This document shows, piece after piece, positions 30,857 to 50,931 of a stretch of DNA of 64,000 nucleotides. A program made the position numbers and the translations under genes. The notes under the pieces are model-generated. The model did no database searches and had not been told where the DNA came from. It saw only the letters and a program-made list of their open reading frames with translations. Numbering within the stretch: the stretch's first letter is position 1; each line of letters opens with the position of its first letter. Source of the DNA: Coleofasciculus sp. B1-GNL1-01 (GTDB lineage: Bacteria; Cyanobacteriota; Cyanobacteriia; Cyanobacteriales; Coleofasciculaceae). The stretch lies in assembly GCA_040220235.1 (NCBI GenBank), contig JAVJTO010000055.1. One strand, written 5' to 3'.

Positions 30857-31156
30857 TTAAGTGTTGACAATCAAGGCTTTAATCTGCTCTTTATGGTAGG
30901 AATTCATTAAAAGCTGAGTTACAAGTTCAGGAATAAAAGCTGTATTGTGTAATTTGCAAAGTTGAACAAGTCGATTTATCAATACTGCATCTATCTTTTT
31001 TGACATTACACGCTCGGATTCAGGGAAATTGGCTATGAAAATATATTCGTCATTCTGCTTCTGCGATTGTTGTATTACATAACCAGCTTTGTAAAGCAGG
31101 TAGATCGCCGAACGTAGTTCCCCACGAGTCCGATTGTGTCCGAATACTTCAATCAA
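30857..31156 (-). CDS. Hypothetical protein, possibly the split C-terminus of the NYN gene
   Basis: TTG start overlaps the NYN stop (TTGATTGA); AT-rich. Confidence 0.4.
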   Translation of the reverse strand: MIEVFGHNRTRGELRSAIYLLYKAGYVIQQSQKQNDEYIFIANFPESERVMSKKIDAVLINRLVQLCKLHNTAFIPELVTQLLMNSYHKEQIKALIVNT

Positions 31157-31835
31157 ATGTTTGTTTAACTTGATATAGTTTGACTATCTCAGGTGCGCTT
31201 TGGAGGAATTTCATGAATCCTCCAAACCCCAAGTTATGCTCATCAAATGCCGAGTCAATCTCAAGCATTTCGTTTTTCAGTGTAGAGAGGCTTACGCCGT
31301 CTGGAAATTTACCAAGTACACGTTCCAGCAAATCTAGTGCGTCTTCACGCAGTTGAGTTGTTTTCAGCGAGGCAGATACACCATTAGTAGTTGATTCTTC
31401 ATCAATGTAAATAAATCGATTACAAGATTTCTTGACAGCCTCGCTAAGAGCAGAACGCGGTCCAACACCGACTACAGATTTACCCAACTCTCTTAAACGC
31501 CTAAACAAAGGTGAAAAATCTGAATCTCCAGTGGCAAGCACAATCCATTCCAAATCAGGAATACGAGCCAAGTACTCCATCACATCGACAACAATTTGAA
31601 TGTCAGCGGAGTTTTTACCTTTTACTGGATGATAAACGTGGACAAACTCAAAACCGAGCAAATTCAGCTCTGGCTGACGTACACTGACTGATGCAATACT
31701 GAAATCCCCATACGCTCGACGAACCACTACACGCCCTAACTCATTAGCGCGTTCTAATAACGCTTCTCCTCCATCAGCTTTCAACCAGCCTGATAGGTTT
31801 TCGACATCCAAAAAGATTGCGACTTTTTCTGCCAT
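31149..31835 (-). CDS. NYN-domain ribonuclease with OST-HTH/LOTUS domain
   Basis: AIFLDVENL, KNSADIQIVVD, LATGDSDFSPL; OST-HTH FDEHNLGFGGFMKFLQS. Confidence 0.88.
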   Translation of the reverse strand: MAEKVAIFLDVENLSGWLKADGGEALLERANELGRVVVRRAYGDFSIASVSVRQPELNLLGFEFVHVYHPVKGKNSADIQIVVDVMEYLARIPDLEWIVLATGDSDFSPLFRRLRELGKSVVGVGPRSALSEAVKKSCNRFIYIDEESTTNGVSASLKTTQLREDALDLLERVLGKFPDGVSLSTLKNEMLEIDSAFDEHNLGFGGFMKFLQSAPEIVKLYQVKQTFD

Positions 31836-35813: not shown

Positions 35814-36251
35814 GAACGTCGATCGAGTTTATCAAACTCAACTTTTGCGGCAATATCCTGAATTAATTGTTCTTATGGTAGGAGAGCCTGGTAAGCTGTC
35901 ATGCATTTAAATTGGGTATTAGTAGCGAGCAAGATGCTCGCACTACAAGGATTTCATGATTATTGATATTAAGGTTTAAATGCCGAACAGCTTAATCCTC
36001 CCAAAAGCACGCCAGATCCTGAAATTTTATGCTGGTGTGAAGCCAATGGGTTTGTTTTGGTGACTAATAATCGTGCTTCTATGCCTGTACATTTAGCCGA
36101 TCATCTTGCTCAAAATCGCCACATACCTGGTATTTTTATTCTCAATCCCGATCTAGGCATTGGTGGAAATCTCGAAGAATTAATTTTAGCTGCTCTTGCT
36201 TCCGAAGACCATGAGTATCAGGATCGGATTATTTATTTACCTCTGCCATAG
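35788..36251 (+). pseudogene. DUF5615 PIN-like toxin interrupted by a MITE
   Basis: MALKYLLDENV...GEPG | NPPKSTPDPEILCWC..LVTNN; removing the insertion restores the frame. Confidence 0.88.
35892..35994. mobile_element. MITE with 20-bp TIRs and TA target duplication
   Basis: TAAGCTGTCATGCATTTAAA ... TTTAAATGCCGAACAGCTTA (17/20 match); net 101-bp insertion. Confidence 0.9.
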
Positions 36252-38157: not shown

Positions 38158-38787
38158 TCAAGATTGAAGCCAACTTCGCAAGATATTAATTACCACTGGA
38201 GTAAAAGGTTCCATCTGACTCTGTTGGGGTTGTGATAGCTCATCGATTAACATCTCTAAAAGTTCTTCATCCTCTAAGCCTTCATCGGGGTCTATACCAT
38301 TTGTCCATAATAAAGCATTAGACAATTGCTTGCGTTTTTCGATCAAGGCACGGTTATGTTTTTCGTGATCTCCCAAGTTTAAGACTCGGATCGTATCGGT
38401 TGCCCGCTCGCTTAACCCTTCTACCCGACCACTAATTTTAAAGCGAAGTTCTGTTTCACATTCTATCATCAGAGGAGTTAGGGGTAGGGGTTGAGATTTA
38501 TGAGCATCACCGCATTGATTAGAGGTATTACAACTGGCGACAATATTTGAAAAGTCAACTGTGCGTCTAGGATTCAATTTTTGAGCTTCTATATGCTCAT
38601 TGTGGCAAGCATCAATATCTTGGATGCGCTGGCAACAATAGGCACAAAGGTAGAATTGTTCTGATAGAGCATATTGCCGAATAGTTCGGCGAATCTCTTC
38701 GGTTAACTGGTTGTAGCGTCCGTGAGGGTTTGCTCGTTTCCAAACTGTTAAGCTGGAGGGTTCAGTCCCTTTACTAATGGTTCGCAT
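38158..38787 (-). CDS. ptuB: HNH endonuclease, PtuB/Septu-like (TIGR02646-like)
   Basis: EQFYLCAYCC..HNEHI..NIVASC..QCGDAHK; start overlaps the ATPase stop by 14 nt. Confidence 0.85.
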   Translation of the reverse strand: MRTISKGTEPSSLTVWKRANPHGRYNQLTEEIRRTIRQYALSEQFYLCAYCCQRIQDIDACHNEHIEAQKLNPRRTVDFSNIVASCNTSNQCGDAHKSQPLPLTPLMIECETELRFKISGRVEGLSERATDTIRVLNLGDHEKHNRALIEKRKQLSNALLWTNGIDPDEGLEDEELLEMLIDELSQPQQSQMEPFTPVVINILRSWLQS

Positions 38788-40144
38788 GACGCAATTCTTG
38801 TTTACGGATCAGCAATTTTGCTTTGACCAATTCCAGATGATTTGCGGGTAGTTCCTCAGTTAATTTGGCGAGTCGTTGTTGAGCCTCGGTTAGCTTTGAA
38901 TCTTGTATGGCATCCAGCAGATCGTTCAGTTCAGCATCAATTTTCTGATTACGGATGCTGGTATCCATAACATCTAATAAGACCGTATTAGCATCTTGCC
39001 CATACTGAGAGGGCAATTGTCGCAATTCACCATTGGTTAAGGTGTAAACCAAAACATTTTTACAGTCACTGATCACCAGAGGTGAATGGGTAGTCAGCAC
39101 AAACTGACAATTTGGGAACGTTGCGATTAGGCGATCGCACAGGCTGCGTTGCCAAGAGGGATGCAGGTGCAAATCGACTTCATCAATCAAGACGATACCA
39201 TCTCCTGCTAGAGGATTCTCCAAAGCAGGGTTCAGCATGGCTAAACGGCGAGCAATATCACCAACCAGAGCCATGAGAGATTTTTCGCCTTGTGAAAGTT
39301 GGGCGACATTCAGGGTTTCACCGTTTTTATCAATCGCCATGTAGAGACGGGGTTTACGACGGACTCTCAGGTTGTCCATCTGGGGCATAAATCGGCGAAT
39401 GGCGGTGCGAACTGCGGTTAATTGCCGATCTTTGGCTGAGGCATTGAGTTCGTTTAACCGTTGCCATGCGTCTGGATTGGTTTCCAATAGTGGTTTCAGT
39501 TGGTTGAGAACATCTTCAGGCATTGCTGATTCATTTTCGGTATCTTCCCGTTCCCGAAACCACTCAAAAAAGCGGCGAAAGTCAACCCCCTGACTTAAAG
39601 AGTTATCGTAACCATCGAGTTGCAAGAAGGTATGCTTTGTCCTAATTTTTAGGGGAATATCAAGTACAACGCGCTCGACAGGGTAAAACGCAATGATGGG
39701 CAGGCTAGTTTTGTGATCACGGGTAAGGGCATCACGGTAACGATTGGCTAAGCGAGTGCAGTCGTTGAGATGGCTAGTGTACCGGGCTTTACGTCCTGTT
39801 CTATTTTTGGCTAAAGTCCACTTGAAGTGATGCTGGATCTCGTTTTGATTCGGATTGTCTGATGTTCCAGAAGCATCACAAATTTCTATTTCAATACTGG
39901 CGGCGTTGGCGGTGTTAAGTATGGCATCTTCCGGGATAGGGTTACCACTACCCTTTTCTGTACGTAAACGAGCAGTAAACCAACTCAGGGAAATAGCTAA
40001 GGCTTTCAATACAGAGGTTTTACCCGCGCCGTTATTACCCACAAAGACAGTGATGTTGCTGGGATTTTGCTCGGTGGGTGCTAAAGGAATTTCCAGGTTT
40101 TCAAATAGCCCAATGTTATTTAAGATAACCCGTTGGATTTCCAT
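38774..40144 (-). CDS. ptuA: ABC/AAA ATPase, PtuA/Septu-like
   Basis: GNNGAGKT, LSQGEK, LIDEVDLHLHPSWQ, TTHSP; coupled to the HNH gene. Confidence 0.87.
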   Translation of the reverse strand: MEIQRVILNNIGLFENLEIPLAPTEQNPSNITVFVGNNGAGKTSVLKALAISLSWFTARLRTEKGSGNPIPEDAILNTANAASIEIEICDASGTSDNPNQNEIQHHFKWTLAKNRTGRKARYTSHLNDCTRLANRYRDALTRDHKTSLPIIAFYPVERVVLDIPLKIRTKHTFLQLDGYDNSLSQGVDFRRFFEWFREREDTENESAMPEDVLNQLKPLLETNPDAWQRLNELNASAKDRQLTAVRTAIRRFMPQMDNLRVRRKPRLYMAIDKNGETLNVAQLSQGEKSLMALVGDIARRLAMLNPALENPLAGDGIVLIDEVDLHLHPSWQRSLCDRLIATFPNCQFVLTTHSPLVISDCKNVLVYTLTNGELRQLPSQYGQDANTVLLDVMDTSIRNQKIDAELNDLLDAIQDSKLTEAQQRLAKLTEELPANHLELVKAKLLIRKQELRHANH

Positions 40145-40267
40145 AGCGGTAACGTTCAAACCTCTGAGGTTTTCGACATTGACAACAGTACCTCAAACGG
40201 TACTTGAAGGCACTTACCCCTATTATGGTCTCAAAACAGTTGCACGTAGCCAGTTTCATCCCAGTCT

Positions 40268-41460: not shown

Positions 41461-41612
41461 CAAGCAAGAGGAGGCGATTGAAATCGCTGCTACACAAACA
41501 AAGTCCGCCTGCGCGGACTGGGTAATAACGGGGGTAGCGTTCCCCGGATTTGGTATAAAGCGGCAACAAAGGAAGCCTACAACCGTACCCATAGGATCGG
41601 TGTAGGAGGACG

Positions 41613-43107: not shown

Positions 43108-43357
43108 TTGTAGTATATTGGTAGTACGACTCAACCCCTCATTGTTTCGTGAGCGATCGCTCAGACTTTGCCTCAGGCAAATCGTAGCACCGTTGCTTCC
43201 AGAGGGACAAGGCCGCATACATTACACCCCTTGGCGAAGGTATGTCAGAGCAAAGAGTCCAGAAGAAAAAAATGGCGACGATTCGTGAAGTCTACGATCG
43301 CATTCTCTGGGATGCACGTCTAGACCGCAGCGCCTTTGCGATCGGCTATATCGAGCG
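43108..43357 (+). pseudogene. Truncated duplicate of the upstream region and first 39 codons of the poly(A) polymerase fusion gene
   Basis: 250-bp diverged direct repeat of 44814-45063; encodes MSEQRVQKKKMATIREVYDRILWDARLDRSAFAIGYIER, then breaks. Confidence 0.93.
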
Positions 43358-43362
43358 TATGT

Positions 43363-44742
43363 CTATTGAGCAAACTTATCCGTGGGTGTAATAACTATAG
43401 TTACTGATGACATTACTTCATAAGGTCTAGTGATTTCCTGGTAATTATCTTCATGAAGTCTTATGTGTGTAATATCTGGAAATAATGCTGGTTCTATAGG
43501 ATATAAAGCGTTTGGATTATGAAACATTACTATACTCTCTGACCATGTTTCTCGATATGATGGATGATCGATATCAATTGAGAAAGGAATTGGTTCAAAT
43601 GCTTCTGGATCTGGATCGAAGAGCTTGCCAACTCTAATCATTTTGATAGCTTGACTACCAAGACCAGCAAGCTTTCCCATTCTATTGAACTTTGTAATAG
43701 TTGCACTATTGGTAAATAAAACTGCGCTGATGTTCTCGGTCTCTGGAAGTTTGAAAAAACCTGATGGGATTCTTTTTCCCTCATACTCATGAAAATCAAT
43801 ATCTTCTTTAACTATGCTGCTATTGCCGTTACTATCCTTTGTCAGTCTGATGCGTTTAGCATAGAGGTAGTCCGACAAAGCAGTTCTTGACCAAACCATT
43901 GATCCGGTCTGGTGATAATCATGTATCGCAATTACCAATGGCTTACCACGGACATGTTCCTTTTCCCAATATTTCTTATTTAGCTTTGAGTAAAGAGGAC
44001 TTCCAAACTTGATAGGCATATAATGCCTAAGCCGTTCGTCTAAATCTTCTTGACTCGTTGGTTCTGGCAAGTCTTGTTTGTGTCTACTAGGATTGACGGT
44101 AACAGCCTCAATACAGATTATCTGATTAAATCGCTCTACAACATAATCAGGAGCGTTGAAAGAACGATCTATTTTAAAGCCCGACTCATGAAGATAAACA
44201 TATAGAAAAATTTCCCAGAGTCTTGAATCAAAACCACTTGTTTGAAAGTCCCGAATAAAATTACCATCGGGATCAGTGAATGTATAAATAATCTCTTCAA
44301 TTAGATTTCGAGCCGCCTCAAATCTAGGTTCTTCAACCAAGTAGCGGAAATAAGGATGTAGTTTTTCTGGTGCAACGATTTGTTTATAGATGTATTGAGG
44401 CGGACTATCCTCATCTCCTTGAGGATATTGTTCGTGCTCTTCCTGACTAAACTCAGTTAACTTTTTTTCAAGCTCCTTGCGTGCATCTTCAATAGAATTA
44501 AAGCTAACTCCAGTGTAGATGCAACGGTAATTTTTGCGTGTGTCTCGACCAAAAATTACAAAATTCCAATCGTTATCAAACTTATCGATGAATATATTTG
44601 CAATAAGAATTTTTCGTTCGTCAGTGTACCACTCGACTTCCTTATTAATAGTAAAAGCCTCTGTTTCCGGCTTAATTCCTCTGACAAGCGGATCGCGAAC
44701 ATAGCACAGAGCATTAAAGTACTCTTGAGAGATAGGGTGCAT
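43363..44742 (-). CDS. Hypothetical protein with PD-(D/E)XK-like nuclease motif, probably foreign
   Basis: FDSRLWE..APDYVV..ICIEAVT; AT-rich; no HIP1 octamer seen in 1.4 kb. Confidence 0.7.
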   Translation of the reverse strand: MHPISQEYFNALCYVRDPLVRGIKPETEAFTINKEVEWYTDERKILIANIFIDKFDNDWNFVIFGRDTRKNYRCIYTGVSFNSIEDARKELEKKLTEFSQEEHEQYPQGDEDSPPQYIYKQIVAPEKLHPYFRYLVEEPRFEAARNLIEEIIYTFTDPDGNFIRDFQTSGFDSRLWEIFLYVYLHESGFKIDRSFNAPDYVVERFNQIICIEAVTVNPSRHKQDLPEPTSQEDLDERLRHYMPIKFGSPLYSKLNKKYWEKEHVRGKPLVIAIHDYHQTGSMVWSRTALSDYLYAKRIRLTKDSNGNSSIVKEDIDFHEYEGKRIPSGFFKLPETENISAVLFTNSATITKFNRMGKLAGLGSQAIKMIRVGKLFDPDPEAFEPIPFSIDIDHPSYRETWSESIVMFHNPNALYPIEPALFPDITHIRLHEDNYQEITRPYEVMSSVTIVITPTDKFAQ

Positions 44743-44947
44743 TGCAGAAACTCTAGAACCTTAAATTGCAATAAATTGGCTGACACTTAGCTTTTCGTGG
44801 CAACCAAATACTATTGTAGTATATTAGTAACACACCTGAACCCCTCATTGTTTCGTTAGCGATCGCTCAGACTTTGCCTCAGGCAAATCGTAGCACCGTT
44901 GCTTCCAGAGGGACAAGGCAGCATACATCACACCCCTTGGCGTAGCC

Positions 44948-47900
44948 ATGTCAGAGCAAAAAGTCCAGAAGAAAAAAATGGCGACGATTCGCGAGATCTA
45001 CGATCGCATTCTCTGGGATGCACGTCTAGACCGCAGCGCCTTTGCCATCGGCTATATCGAGCGCAGGTCTGAAGAAGGTATCCGCGAAAAACCATTTACC
45101 TCTTGGTCAACCGATGGAGACATCCCATTGCATCGCATCCGCTATATACGCTGCGGGGAGGAAATCGTTTGGGATCGCGACCAGCACTTGGATCTGTTCT
45201 CGGCAGGACAACTGCCTGATGCTGCCTTTCTAGCGCATCCCCAAGAGGAGACACATTGGGCTACAGTCACACCTCCTGCACAAAGCCAACACCTACTATT
45301 CAAGCCACGATCGGCCTACCAGTACAGTTCACAAGGTTGGCAACCAACTGACCAACCGTCAACAGAGACAACAATAGGTACGCTGACCATTGCCAGTTTT
45401 AACGTGCTGTGCGACAGCTACGAGCAGGAACGCATCCAGACAGCACAACGCCTGCCTGTGATTGTAGAACATCTGCGCCGATGCGATGCGGATATTATCG
45501 CGCTACAAGAAGCGACGCCACCCCTGCTAGACGTGTTGTTAAAACAGGATTGGGTACACTCTTACACCATTTCTGAATCACCCGAAGGACAAACTCTAAA
45601 GCCCTATGGTGTTTTGCTTCTATCGCGACTGCCGTTTACGCTGGTCGAGCATCAGTATTCGGCGCACAAGCGGGTGCTGGTGGGAACCTGGCAGATTAAC
45701 GGGCGATCGCTACATTTAGCCGTCGTGCATCTGACCAGCAATCGCGCCCGCAATGCTCTTGAAGTCCGGGCAAATCAACGTTCTGTATTACTGGAGTATC
45801 TCAAGACGCTGCCAGGAGAGAGTTTCATTGTTGGAGATTTCAACAGCCGAGGGGATGAGCCAGAGGAGGAGTTGAGCCAAAGCGGTTTTGTCGATGTTTG
45901 GACGCTGCTGCATCCTGATGATCCAGGCTACACCTTTGACCCAGAACGTAACCCGCTAGCCACATTGATGAGTTTGAACGGTGAGGCGGCGCGGTTTGAT
46001 CGCATCTTACAGCGCAGTGAAGATGGGTGCTGGATGCCTCGTTCGATGGAGTTGTTTGCCTGCGAACCTGTAGCGGATACCCAAGGAACCCTTTACCCCT
46101 CCGATCATTTCGGCATCCGTGCCGTTTTGGATTACTCAACGCCCACAATAGCAGCGTTGCAGACAGTGCCGCCAGTCTATCGGAGTGCAGTTGTGGTGAT
46201 TCCCTCGGCTGATGTGTTACCTGCGATTCAAGCAATTCGCCACCGATATGATCGCAGGTTCCACCGTTGGATGCCGCACATCAATTTGCTGTATGGCTTT
46301 GTGCCAGAGGAGTATTTTGAAGAAGCAGCGCAAGCGATCGCACTTGCACTTGCCCAATGGCAACCCTTTGAGATAACGCTCACCAGCTTTGAGGCATTCA
46401 AGCACCGCTCTAGCTGTACGGCATGGTTGCGCCCCGTTGCCCAACCCCCAGATGCACTCCATCAGTTGCAAGCCGTTCTCCAGCAGTTGTTCCTGCAGTG
46501 CGACGAGCAAAGCCAGAAGTCAGCAGCAGGGTTTACACCGCATCTGAGCGTCGGTCAGTTTCCCACTGCACAGGAAGCCAAAACCCAGCTTCCTTCCTGG
46601 CATCCAGTGAGTTTTCTCGTGAACTCCGTAGCCCTGATTAGCCGTCGCGGTGATGAGCCGTTTGAGGTGCGATACAGGGTGCATTTAGGGCAAGAGAGCA
46701 AGGATTGTAGAGACGCGCCATGGCGCGTCTGGGAAGCTGGGGAAGAGACAACTAACCTAATGCAGCGACTGAACCACCTCGAACCCGAGCTGAGTCAGGA
46801 GCAACGCCAGCATCGCGAAACCATTTTGGCATTAGTCGAGCAAGCTTGTGCCGAGTGTTTGGGTTTCCCGGTATCCCTGCATCGAGTAGGTTCGGCACGT
46901 TTGGGCGTGCAGAGTCCGCAAAGCGATTTAGATGTTCTTTGCCTGATTCCCGCGTATCTGTCTGGGGAGGCGTTTTTGGAAAGCGTGGGACAACGCTTGG
47001 AGGGATTATGCGATCGCGCCCAAGTCGTCTCATCTGCCAAGATACCTCTGTTAAGGATGGGATTTGAAGGCGTGTCTGTTGATCTCCTGTATGCCCGCTA
47101 TCCTTCTGATCTAGGCACAGTTGAGCCGTTCACAGAGGCAGCACGACCCTTTTTTGATCCAGTGAGTTGGAAAGCACTGGTGGGTTGTTTGGAAGCTGAT
47201 ATCCTTACAGCTATAGTACGCCAGTCTGTACCGCTAGCGTCTTTCCGGCAGCTTTTGAGGGCAGTGCGGGCGTGGGCGAAGGCACGCCAGATTCACGGCA
47301 ATGCTTGGGGGTTTCTGGGTAGCTTTTCCTGGGCATTGCTGGCGGCTTGGAGTTGCACTCGTTTTCCCGAAGCGGGTGCGGATACAGGGCTTGAGGCATT
47401 ACTTGCTCATTTTTTCCAGGTACTCAACCAACAGGATTGGAGTCAGCCTGTAGCCTTGACCCCAGCAGGTAAACAATACCAGAAATTGCCCTATGACTGG
47501 CTACCTGTCATCACCTCCATTGAACCCTGTCAAAACAGCGCTCGTAATGTCACGCGATCAACTGCCCAGATTTTGCGCCGCGAATTCGAGCGAGGGGCCG
47601 CTATTTCAGAGCAAGTGTTGGCTGGCAAAATAGGTTGGGACGCTCTTTTCGAGATAGCTGATTTACCGACGCAATCCGATTCGTTCTTGGTGCTGACGGC
47701 AACCTGTGACAACAACGATCGCTTGTCAGCTTGCTGCGGGTGGCTGGAAGGTCATGCGATCGGATTGGTCATCGCTCTGGAACAGCAACTCGATCTGTAT
47801 GTTAGACCTTGGACTGGGATTCTGAAAGGGCAAAACAGGATTTGCGCGGTGTTAGGATTAAACTCTTCCCAAGACTTTGATGATGTTGCAATTGAGCAGG

Positions 47901-48013
47901 TTGGTCGAGATTTTGTTCTTCAGTTCAATGCTGATTCTAATGGCAGTATGTTGGAGTGTGTGGCGTGCGATCGCGTTACACTTGTCCAATATGTAAACCT
48001 GCCTGCCAAATAA
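44948..48013 (+). CDS. Multidomain RNA end-repair protein: MJ1316/DUF504 + EEP + 2H phosphoesterase + eukaryote-type poly(A) polymerase
   Basis: IYDRILWD..IGY..IPLHRIRY..IVWDR; ASFNV/LQE/GDFN/FDRI/SDHFG; PHINL and PHLSV; GSARLG..SDLDVL..VDL; RAVRAWAKARQI..GFLGSFSWALL; QNSARNV. Start 44948 or 44978. Confidence 0.9.
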   Translation: MSEQKVQKKKMATIREIYDRILWDARLDRSAFAIGYIERRSEEGIREKPFTSWSTDGDIPLHRIRYIRCGEEIVWDRDQHLDLFSAGQLPDAAFLAHPQEETHWATVTPPAQSQHLLFKPRSAYQYSSQGWQPTDQPSTETTIGTLTIASFNVLCDSYEQERIQTAQRLPVIVEHLRRCDADIIALQEATPPLLDVLLKQDWVHSYTISESPEGQTLKPYGVLLLSRLPFTLVEHQYSAHKRVLVGTWQINGRSLHLAVVHLTSNRARNALEVRANQRSVLLEYLKTLPGESFIVGDFNSRGDEPEEELSQSGFVDVWTLLHPDDPGYTFDPERNPLATLMSLNGEAARFDRILQRSEDGCWMPRSMELFACEPVADTQGTLYPSDHFGIRAVLDYSTPTIAALQTVPPVYRSAVVVIPSADVLPAIQAIRHRYDRRFHRWMPHINLLYGFVPEEYFEEAAQAIALALAQWQPFEITLTSFEAFKHRSSCTAWLRPVAQPPDALHQLQAVLQQLFLQCDEQSQKSAAGFTPHLSVGQFPTAQEAKTQLPSWHPVSFLVNSVALISRRGDEPFEVRYRVHLGQESKDCRDAPWRVWEAGEETTNLMQRLNHLEPELSQEQRQHRETILALVEQACAECLGFPVSLHRVGSARLGVQSPQSDLDVLCLIPAYLSGEAFLESVGQRLEGLCDRAQVVSSAKIPLLRMGFEGVSVDLLYARYPSDLGTVEPFTEAARPFFDPVSWKALVGCLEADILTAIVRQSVPLASFRQLLRAVRAWAKARQIHGNAWGFLGSFSWALLAAWSCTRFPEAGADTGLEALLAHFFQVLNQQDWSQPVALTPAGKQYQKLPYDWLPVITSIEPCQNSARNVTRSTAQILRREFERGAAISEQVLAGKIGWDALFEIADLPTQSDSFLVLTATCDNNDRLSACCGWLEGHAIGLVIALEQQLDLYVRPWTGILKGQNRICAVLGLNSSQDFDDVAIEQVGRDFVLQFNADSNGSMLECVACDRVTLVQYVNLPAK

Positions 48014-48666: not shown

Positions 48667-49002
48667 AATCCGATTACTCCTGATCAATATTTGACGGGCT
48701 GGTAGGGAGCTTTATGCCTTACCATCCCAACTAAAAAGAATAACAAAATATCGGCTTACTGTAAAGCTAAAATCAATTAATTTTTTATCTGAATTAACCT
48801 CTTAATAAATGGACAAGGCGGCACTTGTTTCTGTCTCGTGATAAGTCTCTACAAAAGTACCGTTCACCCAGTCAACACAGCGCTTTGCATCTAATACCAA
48901 ATCCGGGTTAGCCACCCCCCTTATAAGCTAGTCCGCGCAGGCTGACTTTGTTTGTGTAGCTGCGACTTCTAGTCGCTAGGGCAAAAAAGGGGTTCCTTAT
49001 GC

Positions 49003-50346: not shown

Positions 50347-50401
50347 GTTCTTGTATTCTCACCCAATAAATTATAGATGCTGACTTGAATCTACCGCGTT
50401 T

Positions 50402-50670
50402 GGGGAAGATGGGGGAGATGGGGGAGATGGGGGAGATGGGGAAGATGGGGGAGATGGGGGAGATGGGGGAGATGGGGGAGATGGGGGAGATGGGGAAGAT
50501 GGGGGAGATGGGGAAGATGGGGGAGATGAGGGAGATGGGGAAGATGGGGGAGATGGGGGAGATGGGGGAGATGGGGGAGATGGGGGAGATGGGGGAGATG
50601 GGGGAGATGGGGGAGATGAGGGAGATGGGGGAGATGAGGGAGATGGGGAAGATGGGGGAGATGGGGGAGA
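50402..50670. repeat. 9-bp tandem repeat (GGGGGAGAT), ~30 copies
   Basis: Directly visible, with variants GGGGAAGAT and GAGGGAGAT. Confidence 0.97.
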
Positions 50671-50674
50671 AAAA

Positions 50675-50931
50675 TTCAATCTTGAACGTCAATAATAGCA
50701 AAATCCTTGTAGTGCGAGCATCTTGCTCGCTACATTGAACATCTTGCTCGCTACATTGAACATCTTGCTCGCTACATTGAACATCTTGCTCGCTACATTG
50801 AACATCTTGCTCGCTACATTGAACATCTTGCTCGCTACATTGAACATCTTGCTCGCTACATTGAGCATCTTGCTCGCTACCTTGAACATCTTGCTCGCTA
50901 CTAATACCCAATTTAGATGCATGACAGCTTA
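50675..50931. mobile_element. Truncated MITE (35892 family, opposite orientation) with 21-bp tandem expansion x9
   Basis: AAATCCTTGTAGTGCGAG[CATCTTGCTCGCTACATTGAA]n CTAATACCCAATTTAGATGCATGACAGCTTA; units start at 50719 through 50887. Confidence 0.88.

Follow-up and report, generated by a model that had tools for sequence, protein, structure and literature searches.

A eukaryote-type poly(A) polymerase fold fused to MJ1316, EEP and 2H domains in Coleofasciculus: a candidate enzyme for healing and extending RNA 3' ends

The organisation of a multidomain fusion gene was examined in a 64,000-nucleotide stretch of contig JAVJTO010000055.1 (assembly GCA_040220235.1) from Coleofasciculus sp. B1-GNL1-01, referred to below as the window. 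The gene encodes a protein of 1021 residues, P0001, in one open frame with no internal stops, and its GC content (51–55% per kb) is higher than that of the surrounding DNA (40–49%). Pfam matches, all above the curated cut-offs, were obtained for MJ1316, Exo_endo_phos (starting at residue 149, E 1.7e-13), 2_5_RNA_ligase2 (residues 423–570, E 3.3e-35), PAP_NTPase (residues 647–718, E 9.2e-8) and PAP_central, placing the four domains of the fusion family in the family order on a single chain. An AlphaFold model built from 95 sequences gave a mean predicted local distance difference test score (pLDDT) of 87.1 and a predicted template modelling score (pTM) of 0.50, with low-confidence linkers between domains at residues 99–115 and 585–600. 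The coordinates of the domains and of the neighbouring features are given in Table 1.

Table 1. Positions of the fusion gene, its domains and neighbouring features in the window
Feature	Position	Strand	Evidence
HD phosphoesterase and P-loop polynucleotide kinase (HD-Pnk-like), 384 residues	32085..33239	-	PF01966 E 1.7e-6, PF13671 E 2.2e-27
ATP-dependent RNA ligase, 260 residues	33464..34246	-	PF09414 E 5.2e-37; 70–80% identical to homologs' neighbours
Septu-type PtuA/PtuB pair (putative passenger)	38158..40159	-	PADLOC E 6e-167 and 1.9e-97
Orphan copy of fusion upstream region and first ~41 codons, 257 nt, 93% identical	43108..43364	+	Repeat comparison
PD-T7-1-like defence gene between the 257-nt repeat copies (putative passenger)	43363..44742	-	PADLOC PD-T7-1 E 7.7e-175
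Second 257-nt repeat copy, start of intact fusion gene	44814..45070	+	Repeat comparison
P0001 (MJ1316-EEP-2H-PAP-fold protein)	44948..48013	+	Open reading frame, Pfam, AlphaFold model
MJ1316/DUF504 domain, residues 11–77; predicted 2',3'-cyclic phosphate end reader	44978..45178	+	PF04457 E 6e-20
EEP domain, residues 142–398, TDP2-like	45371..46141	+	TDP2 fold and profile matches
2H phosphoesterase, ~residues 408–580; H444-x-N446, H532-x-S534	46169..46687	+	PF13563
Pol-beta nucleotidyltransferase, ~residues 599–760; G648-S649, D660, D662, D712; family-specific E749	46742..47227	+	
Poly(A) polymerase (PAP) central domain, residues 765–902	47240..47653	+	PF04928 E 1.1e-28
RRM-like C-terminal PAP domain, ~residues 906–1017	47663..47998	+	Structural alignment to PAP

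The best PDB sequence matches of the protein were the canonical poly(A) polymerases (PAPs) of human, bovine, fission yeast and budding yeast (E 9e-38 to 2e-31), followed by TDP2. Superposition of residues 599–1017 of the model with human PAP-gamma gave a Z score of 38.7 and a root-mean-square deviation of 2.2 over 404 aligned residues. Canonical PAP structures scored Z 33–39 against this half of the protein, compared to 25 or less for terminal uridylyltransferases (TUTases). As the alignment spans residues 599–1017, reaching residue 497 of the PAP chain, the nucleotidyltransferase, central and RRM-like domains of the class I fold are all present. A preliminary description of this DNA had proposed a class I canonical PAP fold for the C-terminal half and the eukaryotic central-domain signature, without mention of an RRM-like domain. 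The model bears out the fold, and the signature is confirmed by the motifs RAVRAWAKAR, GFLG..SWA.L and QNSARNV together with the Pfam match to the central domain, which contains R774, K778, H783, N785, F793, T856, N863 and R866. No Pfam or NCBIfam match to class II PAP or CCA-adding enzymes was found on the protein, and the fold matches listed were to class I.

Residue conservation was measured in 108 full-length homologs out of 120 listed and in a second set of 40 diverse homologs. Residues N152, E188, H261, D297, N299, D351, D386, G648, S649, D660, D662 and D712 were kept in all 108, so that the GS...DxD...D catalytic residues of class I PAPs are invariant, while H387 and H532 were each kept in 107 and H444 in 105, with gaps in the other three. 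Both Hx(T/S)-type motifs of the 2H domain are present (H444-I-N446 and H532-L-S534); since position 446 is asparagine in 63 of the 108 homologs and threonine in 42, the HxN of the first motif is a natural variant. In the diverse set P60, R63, W75 and R77 of MJ1316 were invariant, as were N152, E188, K241, H261, D297, N299, D351, D386 and H387 of the EEP domain (40/40), and there too the catalytic residues of the 2H and nucleotidyltransferase domains were essentially invariant. The nucleotidyltransferase motifs G648-S649, D660-L-D662 and D712 were likewise located, and the earlier statement that four modules carry intact catalytic motifs holds for every motif quoted. Purifying selection acts on the domains, the ratio of nonsynonymous to synonymous substitution rates (dN/dS) being below 1 in each: 0.02–0.27 in the five parts other than the RRM-like domain and 0.26–0.60 in the RRM-like domain, the least constrained part, against the three closest intact relatives tested (values against two distant relatives were mostly saturated). 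A pseudogene in the source genome was ruled out by the intact frame and dN/dS below 1.

The nucleotide-binding pocket was compared by aligning 63 nucleotidyltransferase domains from fused proteins with 87 unfused ones, approximately 12 of the unfused rows being fragments of fused-type proteins; residues are numbered as in bovine PAP, read off an alignment to 1f5a. The catalytic aspartates are common to both sets. At N202, V206, Y237 and V247, conserved residues with functional roles in the PAP pocket, P0001 has V745, E749, H783 and F793 instead. These replacements recur across the family. N202 is asparagine in 76 of the 87 unfused rows and variable, mostly hydrophobic, in the fused rows; V206 is valine in 72/87, compared to glutamate or aspartate at position 749 in 62 of the 63 fused rows; Y237 is tyrosine in 82/87, compared to only 12/63 at position 783; and V247 is valine or isoleucine in 75/87, compared to phenylalanine or tyrosine at position 793 in 47/63. 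The position of Y326 is arginine in 57 of the 63 fused rows. The equivalents of K232, N239, T317 and N324 are largely kept, N785 occurring in 42/63. Because the pocket is altered systematically relative to true PAPs, poly(A) activity is not established by the family label, and the poly(A) synthesis put forward in the preliminary description is not supported as stated. The nucleotide added need not be A, and the name 'poly(A)' is a transferred one. N171 of Cid1 reads the 2'-OH of the ribose together with the O2 of the pyrimidine, and Y212 stacks on the base (PMC3479196). Judged by spacing from the conserved lysine pair, Cid1 N171 would correspond to V206/E749 and Y212 to V247/F793; a short-segment PDB search for a direct alignment of E749 to a TUTase returned nothing. 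At a position likely to govern specificity, the fused family thus has a conserved residue of its own.

A quick maximum-likelihood tree of the nucleotidyltransferase (LG+G4, unrooted) was calculated from 73 rows selected from the best 150 matches, several of which have biased composition. One branch of length 0.56, with a Shimodaira–Hasegawa-like approximate likelihood ratio test (SH-aLRT) value of 100, separated 30 canonical from 43 fused-type rows. P0001 lies outside the canonical PAP clade, on the fused side, and carries the signature E/D749 and R866 of that clade. The two sides of the tree are equally deep; among the fused-type rows, Balamuthia P0164 and P0157 lie closest to canonical PAP (SH-aLRT 97). 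In comparison with the canonical PAPs (yeast Pap1, PAPOLA/PAPOLG and Pla1), the protein therefore shares all three domains and the GS, DxD and D residues, but it is only ~25% identical, belongs to a separate branch, has the five pocket positions replaced, is without the ~30 residues with which the PAP chain begins and is fused to three end-processing domains.

The EEP domain superposed on TDP2 with Z 28.7 and a root-mean-square deviation of 2.2 over 234 aligned residues at ~25% identity, and the HLxS and R-F-D-R motifs align between the two. Profile comparison ranked TDP2 (E 4.5e-26) far ahead of the CCR4-family enzymes CNOT6L (1.8e-7), nocturnin (2.3e-7) and ANGEL2 (5.8e-4), so the closest relative is not of the ANGEL2/CCR4 type. 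The preliminary description had taken this domain simply as a phosphatase, an assignment that is weakened by the closest solved relative being a phosphodiesterase. The domain may either remove the 2'-phosphate produced by 2H action or cleave off an adduct, for instance the 5'-adenylate of an abortive ligation. The 2H domain also gave a profile match to 2d4g (E 1.8e-9). As a precedent, conversion by E. coli ThpR of RNA with a 2',3'-cyclic phosphate end (RNA>p) to a 2'-phosphate is reported in PMC4201822. TDP2, ANGEL2 and ThpR share the EEP or 2H catalytic residues with the fusion but are single-domain proteins. For MJ1316 no solved structural relative was found by fold comparison, the best Z being 4.7 with scattered Sm-, SH3- and WYL-like rows at Z 2–3.8. 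Binding of this domain to 2',3'-cyclic phosphate is predicted from the family match, and part of PMC6514570 describes MJ1316 as recognising cyclic ends and as fused to RNA-repair domains. The likeness to TDP2, with its aligned motifs, would also suit an enzyme that processes DNA ends or 5' adducts, in which the EEP domain removes a 5'-linked protein or an abortive-ligation adenylate and the nucleotidyltransferase acts on DNA; a passage of PMC6300522 moreover reports that deletions of Rnl and HD-Pnk sensitise Deinococcus to radiation. This is improbable, as MJ1316, 2H and PAP are RNA-linked families and the acidic residue 749 could still bind a ribose 2'-OH. Stand-alone relatives of two of the domains were also observed. 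A 287-residue TDP2-like EEP paralog (G000:C157:140043-140903), 33% identical to residues 119–391 of the fusion, occurs in the source genome, with no informative neighbours there, and in most congeners; single 2H domains 42–66% identical to that of the fusion occur at L007 (G058, 1480–2040), L114 and L143.

The distribution of the fusion was assessed by scoring 8000 candidates, of which 914 proteins matched P0001, most of the named ones being labelled 'poly(A) polymerase'. This number rules out an assembly artefact or a chance fusion. Among named relatives, Coleofasciculus proteins are the closest (90% identity), and when the PAP half was compared with 1.84 billion representatives the fused proteins ranked first and canonical PAPs next. 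In a 50%-identity library 37 of the 45 proteins scanned had the four-domain set; the others were canonical PAPs, fragments or proteins minus one domain. The four-domain order recurs in Bacteroidota, Actinomycetota, Myxococcales and protists, with named carriers in Aureispira, Cytophagales, Flammeovirgaceae, Myxococcales, Capsaspora and Paratrimastix and full-length copies in Embleya and Nonomuraea; the Balamuthia form has no 2H among the domains listed. The rarity implied by the preliminary description is therefore not upheld. Among cyanobacteria, one of 400 other sampled genomes (G206) carries the fusion. Of eight congeners, G006 has an intact gene and G007 an open one that runs into a contig end; in G002, G003 and G004 the gene is broken or fragmentary, and in G001, G005 and G008 none was found. 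One cyanobacterial plasmid and three actinobacterial large replicons carry copies; no match was found in 50,697 phage records, and viral contigs gave three weak matches to EEP only. Fusions of MJ1316 for RNA repair were reportedly predicted by Burroughs and Aravind in 2016, and 2H, EEP and PAP-like domains are said to be among the partners. With those predicted proteins P0001 has in common an MJ1316 domain, end-healing domains and a pol-beta nucleotidyltransferase, with no essential architectural difference. No biochemical study of the fusion was found in the literature searched, which covered few subscription journals, and by its domains the protein is assigned to an already predicted, biochemically uncharacterised RNA-repair fusion family.

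The gene neighbourhoods of the fusion were examined at 62 loci, obtained by keeping the best 80 of 323 matching stretches. Two families dominate them, a 262-residue ATP-dependent RNA ligase (PF09414) and a protein with HD and P-loop kinase domains (HD-Pnk); their profiles were built from the 62 loci themselves, which are kin and not independent. The ligase flanks the fusion at 27 loci, HD-Pnk at 28 and either one at 29, and at 23 of the 62 loci ligase, HD-Pnk and fusion follow in order on one strand. Two Bacteroidota loci have the order ligase, Rnl2, fusion, HD-Pnk; an operon of this type was observed at L064, L074 and L100, and in L064 a MoxR-vWA-beta-propeller conflict system comes after it. 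Of the 33 loci with neither neighbour, 30 (29 genomes) were tested genome-wide, and 23 of the 29 genomes carry the ligase elsewhere, four of them non-cyanobacterial and two with an internal stop in the ligase. The background frequency of the ligase is 24 in the 400 cyanobacteria, and the sole other fusion carrier there (G206) has it. Both genes are also present in the window, upstream of the fusion and pointing away from it at a distance of 10.7 kb. The ligase of the window is an ortholog of the one that lies upstream of the fusion in many homologs' loci. The HD-Pnk of the window is 54–74% identical to the homologs' neighbours and matches T4 Pnk weakly (E 7e-4). The same divergent layout of ligase and fusion, with variable filling, is found in G006, G018 and G004. 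Two further neighbours were seen: a putative RNase with NYN and OST-HTH domains (31149–31835), just downstream of the HD-Pnk gene on the same strand and not seen beside homologs elsewhere, and an ADP-ribosylglycohydrolase gene immediately preceding the fusion, in the same orientation, at two closely related non-cyanobacterial loci (L062, 6615–7517; L099, 5036–5956).

The flanking of 29 of the 62 loci by ligase or HD-Pnk, with both genes present in the window, favours repair over signalling and gives contextual support to the RNA-end repair role that had been suggested beforehand. The suggested alternative, an oligonucleotide second-messenger synthase with built-in degradation by the 2H and EEP domains, is very improbable. 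The pol-beta fold and weak matches to CD-NTases (PADLOC E 0.008; NCBIfam 17.9 bits; CdnC profile E 1.3e-5) would agree with it, but PAP scores are far higher, no effector family recurred among the neighbour clusters of the 62 loci, from which 56 selected neighbours were scanned, and the CBASS of congener G003 has its own cyclase and adjoins a truncated fusion gene. As a CBASS cyclase the protein was rejected, the NCBIfam score lying below the cut-off of 200 and no conserved effector gene being adjacent. Of the preliminary description, the PAP fold, the intact motifs and the RNA-end repair role were thus retained, and poly(A) synthesis, the phosphatase assignment, signalling and rarity were not.

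Taken as a whole, the evidence leans towards P0001 being an RNA 3'-end heal-and-extend enzyme, which would heal an end, add a short patch and then allow ligation or leave a restored terminus; this is somewhat more likely than not, and the catalytic steps are all inferred from family membership. A ribonuclease, whether a toxin, a defence nuclease or a stress enzyme, would leave a 2',3'-cyclic phosphate end, which MJ1316 would bind and the 2H domain would open to a 2'-phosphate. Removal of the remaining phosphate, or of a blocking adduct, would fall to the EEP domain or to the partner's HD domain, after which the PAP-fold domain would extend the 3'-OH by one or a few nucleotides. Once rebuilt, the end could be joined by the ligase to a 5' end that HD-Pnk has phosphorylated, so that the lost nucleotides are replaced, or it could stay as a restored terminus, for instance a tRNA acceptor end. 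Section 3.4.9 of PMC7824862 predicts that pol-beta nucleotidyltransferases beside ATP-grasp ligases restore lost nucleotides before ligation. The template-free restoration proposed in that part of PMC7824862 for RlaP and CCA-adding enzymes, beside a ligase or at tRNA ends, is similar to what is suggested here, although these are different nucleotidyltransferase families and no RlaP or CCA model in Pfam or NCBIfam matches P0001. The neighbouring genes encode the same kinds of domain as the heal-and-seal systems of ATP-grasp ligase and HD-Pnk, such as those with the Deinococcus and Runella HD-Pnk and T4 Rnl-Pnkp. Such systems need no nucleotide addition, and only a minority of the genomes with the ligase have the fusion in addition. 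The fusion is most likely an optional add-on, the ligase and HD-Pnk usually occurring without it.

Several observations weigh against the heal-and-extend interpretation. Within the 400 sampled cyanobacteria 23 of the 24 ligase-positive genomes are without the fusion, and the ligase background is high in some lineages (18/19 in one genus, 15/36 in the family of the source organism). The kinship of the loci and the derivation of the profiles from them, the distance and opposite strand of the ligase in the source genome, and the absence of the ligase by this query from 6 of the 29 tested genomes all reduce the strength of the linkage. It is limited to the closer clade and weakens with distance: ligase or HD-Pnk was present at only 11 of 61 metagenome loci, many of them short, and at neither of two actinobacterial loci. 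The EEP domain resembles TDP2 and not the known cyclic phosphatase ANGEL2, and the 2H and EEP domains look redundant beside an HD-Pnk and ligase that should already heal and seal. The retention of the RRM-like domain is easier to reconcile with long tails than with the filling of gaps. Bacterial tails promote decay, and the protein could instead unblock cyclic ends and add A-rich or mixed tails as a foothold for 3'-5' exonucleases (PNPase, RNase II/R), clearing fragments beyond rescue by the ligase. The complete PAP fold with its RRM-like domain, the kept T856 and N863 (with N785 in 42/63 fused rows) and the distant members without a ligase nearby would agree with such a role, which is possible but distinctly less probable given the operonic order with ligase and kinase at 23/62 loci and the differences from true PAPs at several conserved pocket positions.

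The heal-and-extend interpretation can be carried further back. The fused nucleotidyltransferases are at least as diverse as canonical PAPs, the three PAP domains are kept and, in the unrooted tree, canonical PAPs attach next to the protist fused form Balamuthia P0164, from which it may be speculated, though doubtfully, that the fused family is the stock from which canonical eukaryotic PAP arose and still adds a short, protein-selected patch other than poly(A) to a healed RNA break for an ATP-dependent ligase. If so, the rebuilding of RNA that has lost nucleotides would be the older job of PAP. P0001 is a soluble bacterial protein in which a single chain carries the whole eukaryote-type PAP module, and it is directly testable. 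At stake are the predictions that MJ1316 reads cyclic ends and that nucleotides are restored without template before ligation, as well as what the closest sister family of PAP adds; the linkage to ligase and kinase, the changed pocket and the likeness of the EEP domain to TDP2 sharpen the possible experiments. If one protein does convert RNA>p to a tailed end, it would be useful for sequencing cyclic-phosphate RNAs.

The copy in the window is not special within the fusion family except that its operon is split by a defence island. Between ligase and fusion lies, by annotation, a variable island that includes Septu, a homolog of PD-T7-1 and genes of toxin-antitoxin type. This setting, and the rare, patchy occurrence of a gene decayed or lost in most congeners, could indicate a defence effector or toxin-like enzyme that adds nucleotides to tRNA or phage RNA ends during infection, its hydrolase domains reversing or limiting this in uninfected cells. 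Such a role is unlikely: PADLOC has no system model that fits (best E 0.008), the neighbours of most homologs outside this family are housekeeping or repair genes, and the architecture is found in protists too. Septu PtuA/PtuB was found at the same site in the six congener regions examined, with other cargo varying. The 257-nt repeat has exactly two occurrences in the source genome, and the PD-T7-1-like gene between them had a depth of 0–2.3 in all four sequencing runs covering its flanks. The same slot contains a CBASS of patatin and split cyclase in G003 and a TPR-like gene in L089, a locus that also has a partial duplicate. Divergently oriented cargo has repeatedly entered at the 5' end of the fusion gene (the window; L089, 2125–2300; L156, 4613–7249), with duplicated promoter or 5' copies in two of the three, and PD-T7-1 and the other cargo are probably passengers that entered there by recombination. 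A promoter scan was uninformative (9 sites against 7.3 expected), and three RNA-labelled runs covered genes and intergenic repeats much like the unlabelled run, so that they are uninformative on transcription.

Further repeats were observed in and around the island. Internal pieces of the ligase gene are duplicated within it (33944–34054/36245–36355 and 33884–33929/35271–35316, 97% and 89% identical), and G002, G004 and G006 have similar ones; a HIP1 site lies in the longer piece. An inverted element of ~80 nt (41480–41556 and 48894–48969, 78–86% complementary) brackets the segment from the GNAT to the TerB-like gene, and the very high depth over it in every run points to a repeat spread across the genome. 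Just upstream of an NMT1-like gene lie tandem arrays of a 9-nt unit (50347–50724, ~28 register copies) and a 21-nt unit (50674–50925, nine copies), and the flanks of the 21-nt array match 35892–35981 in inverted orientation.

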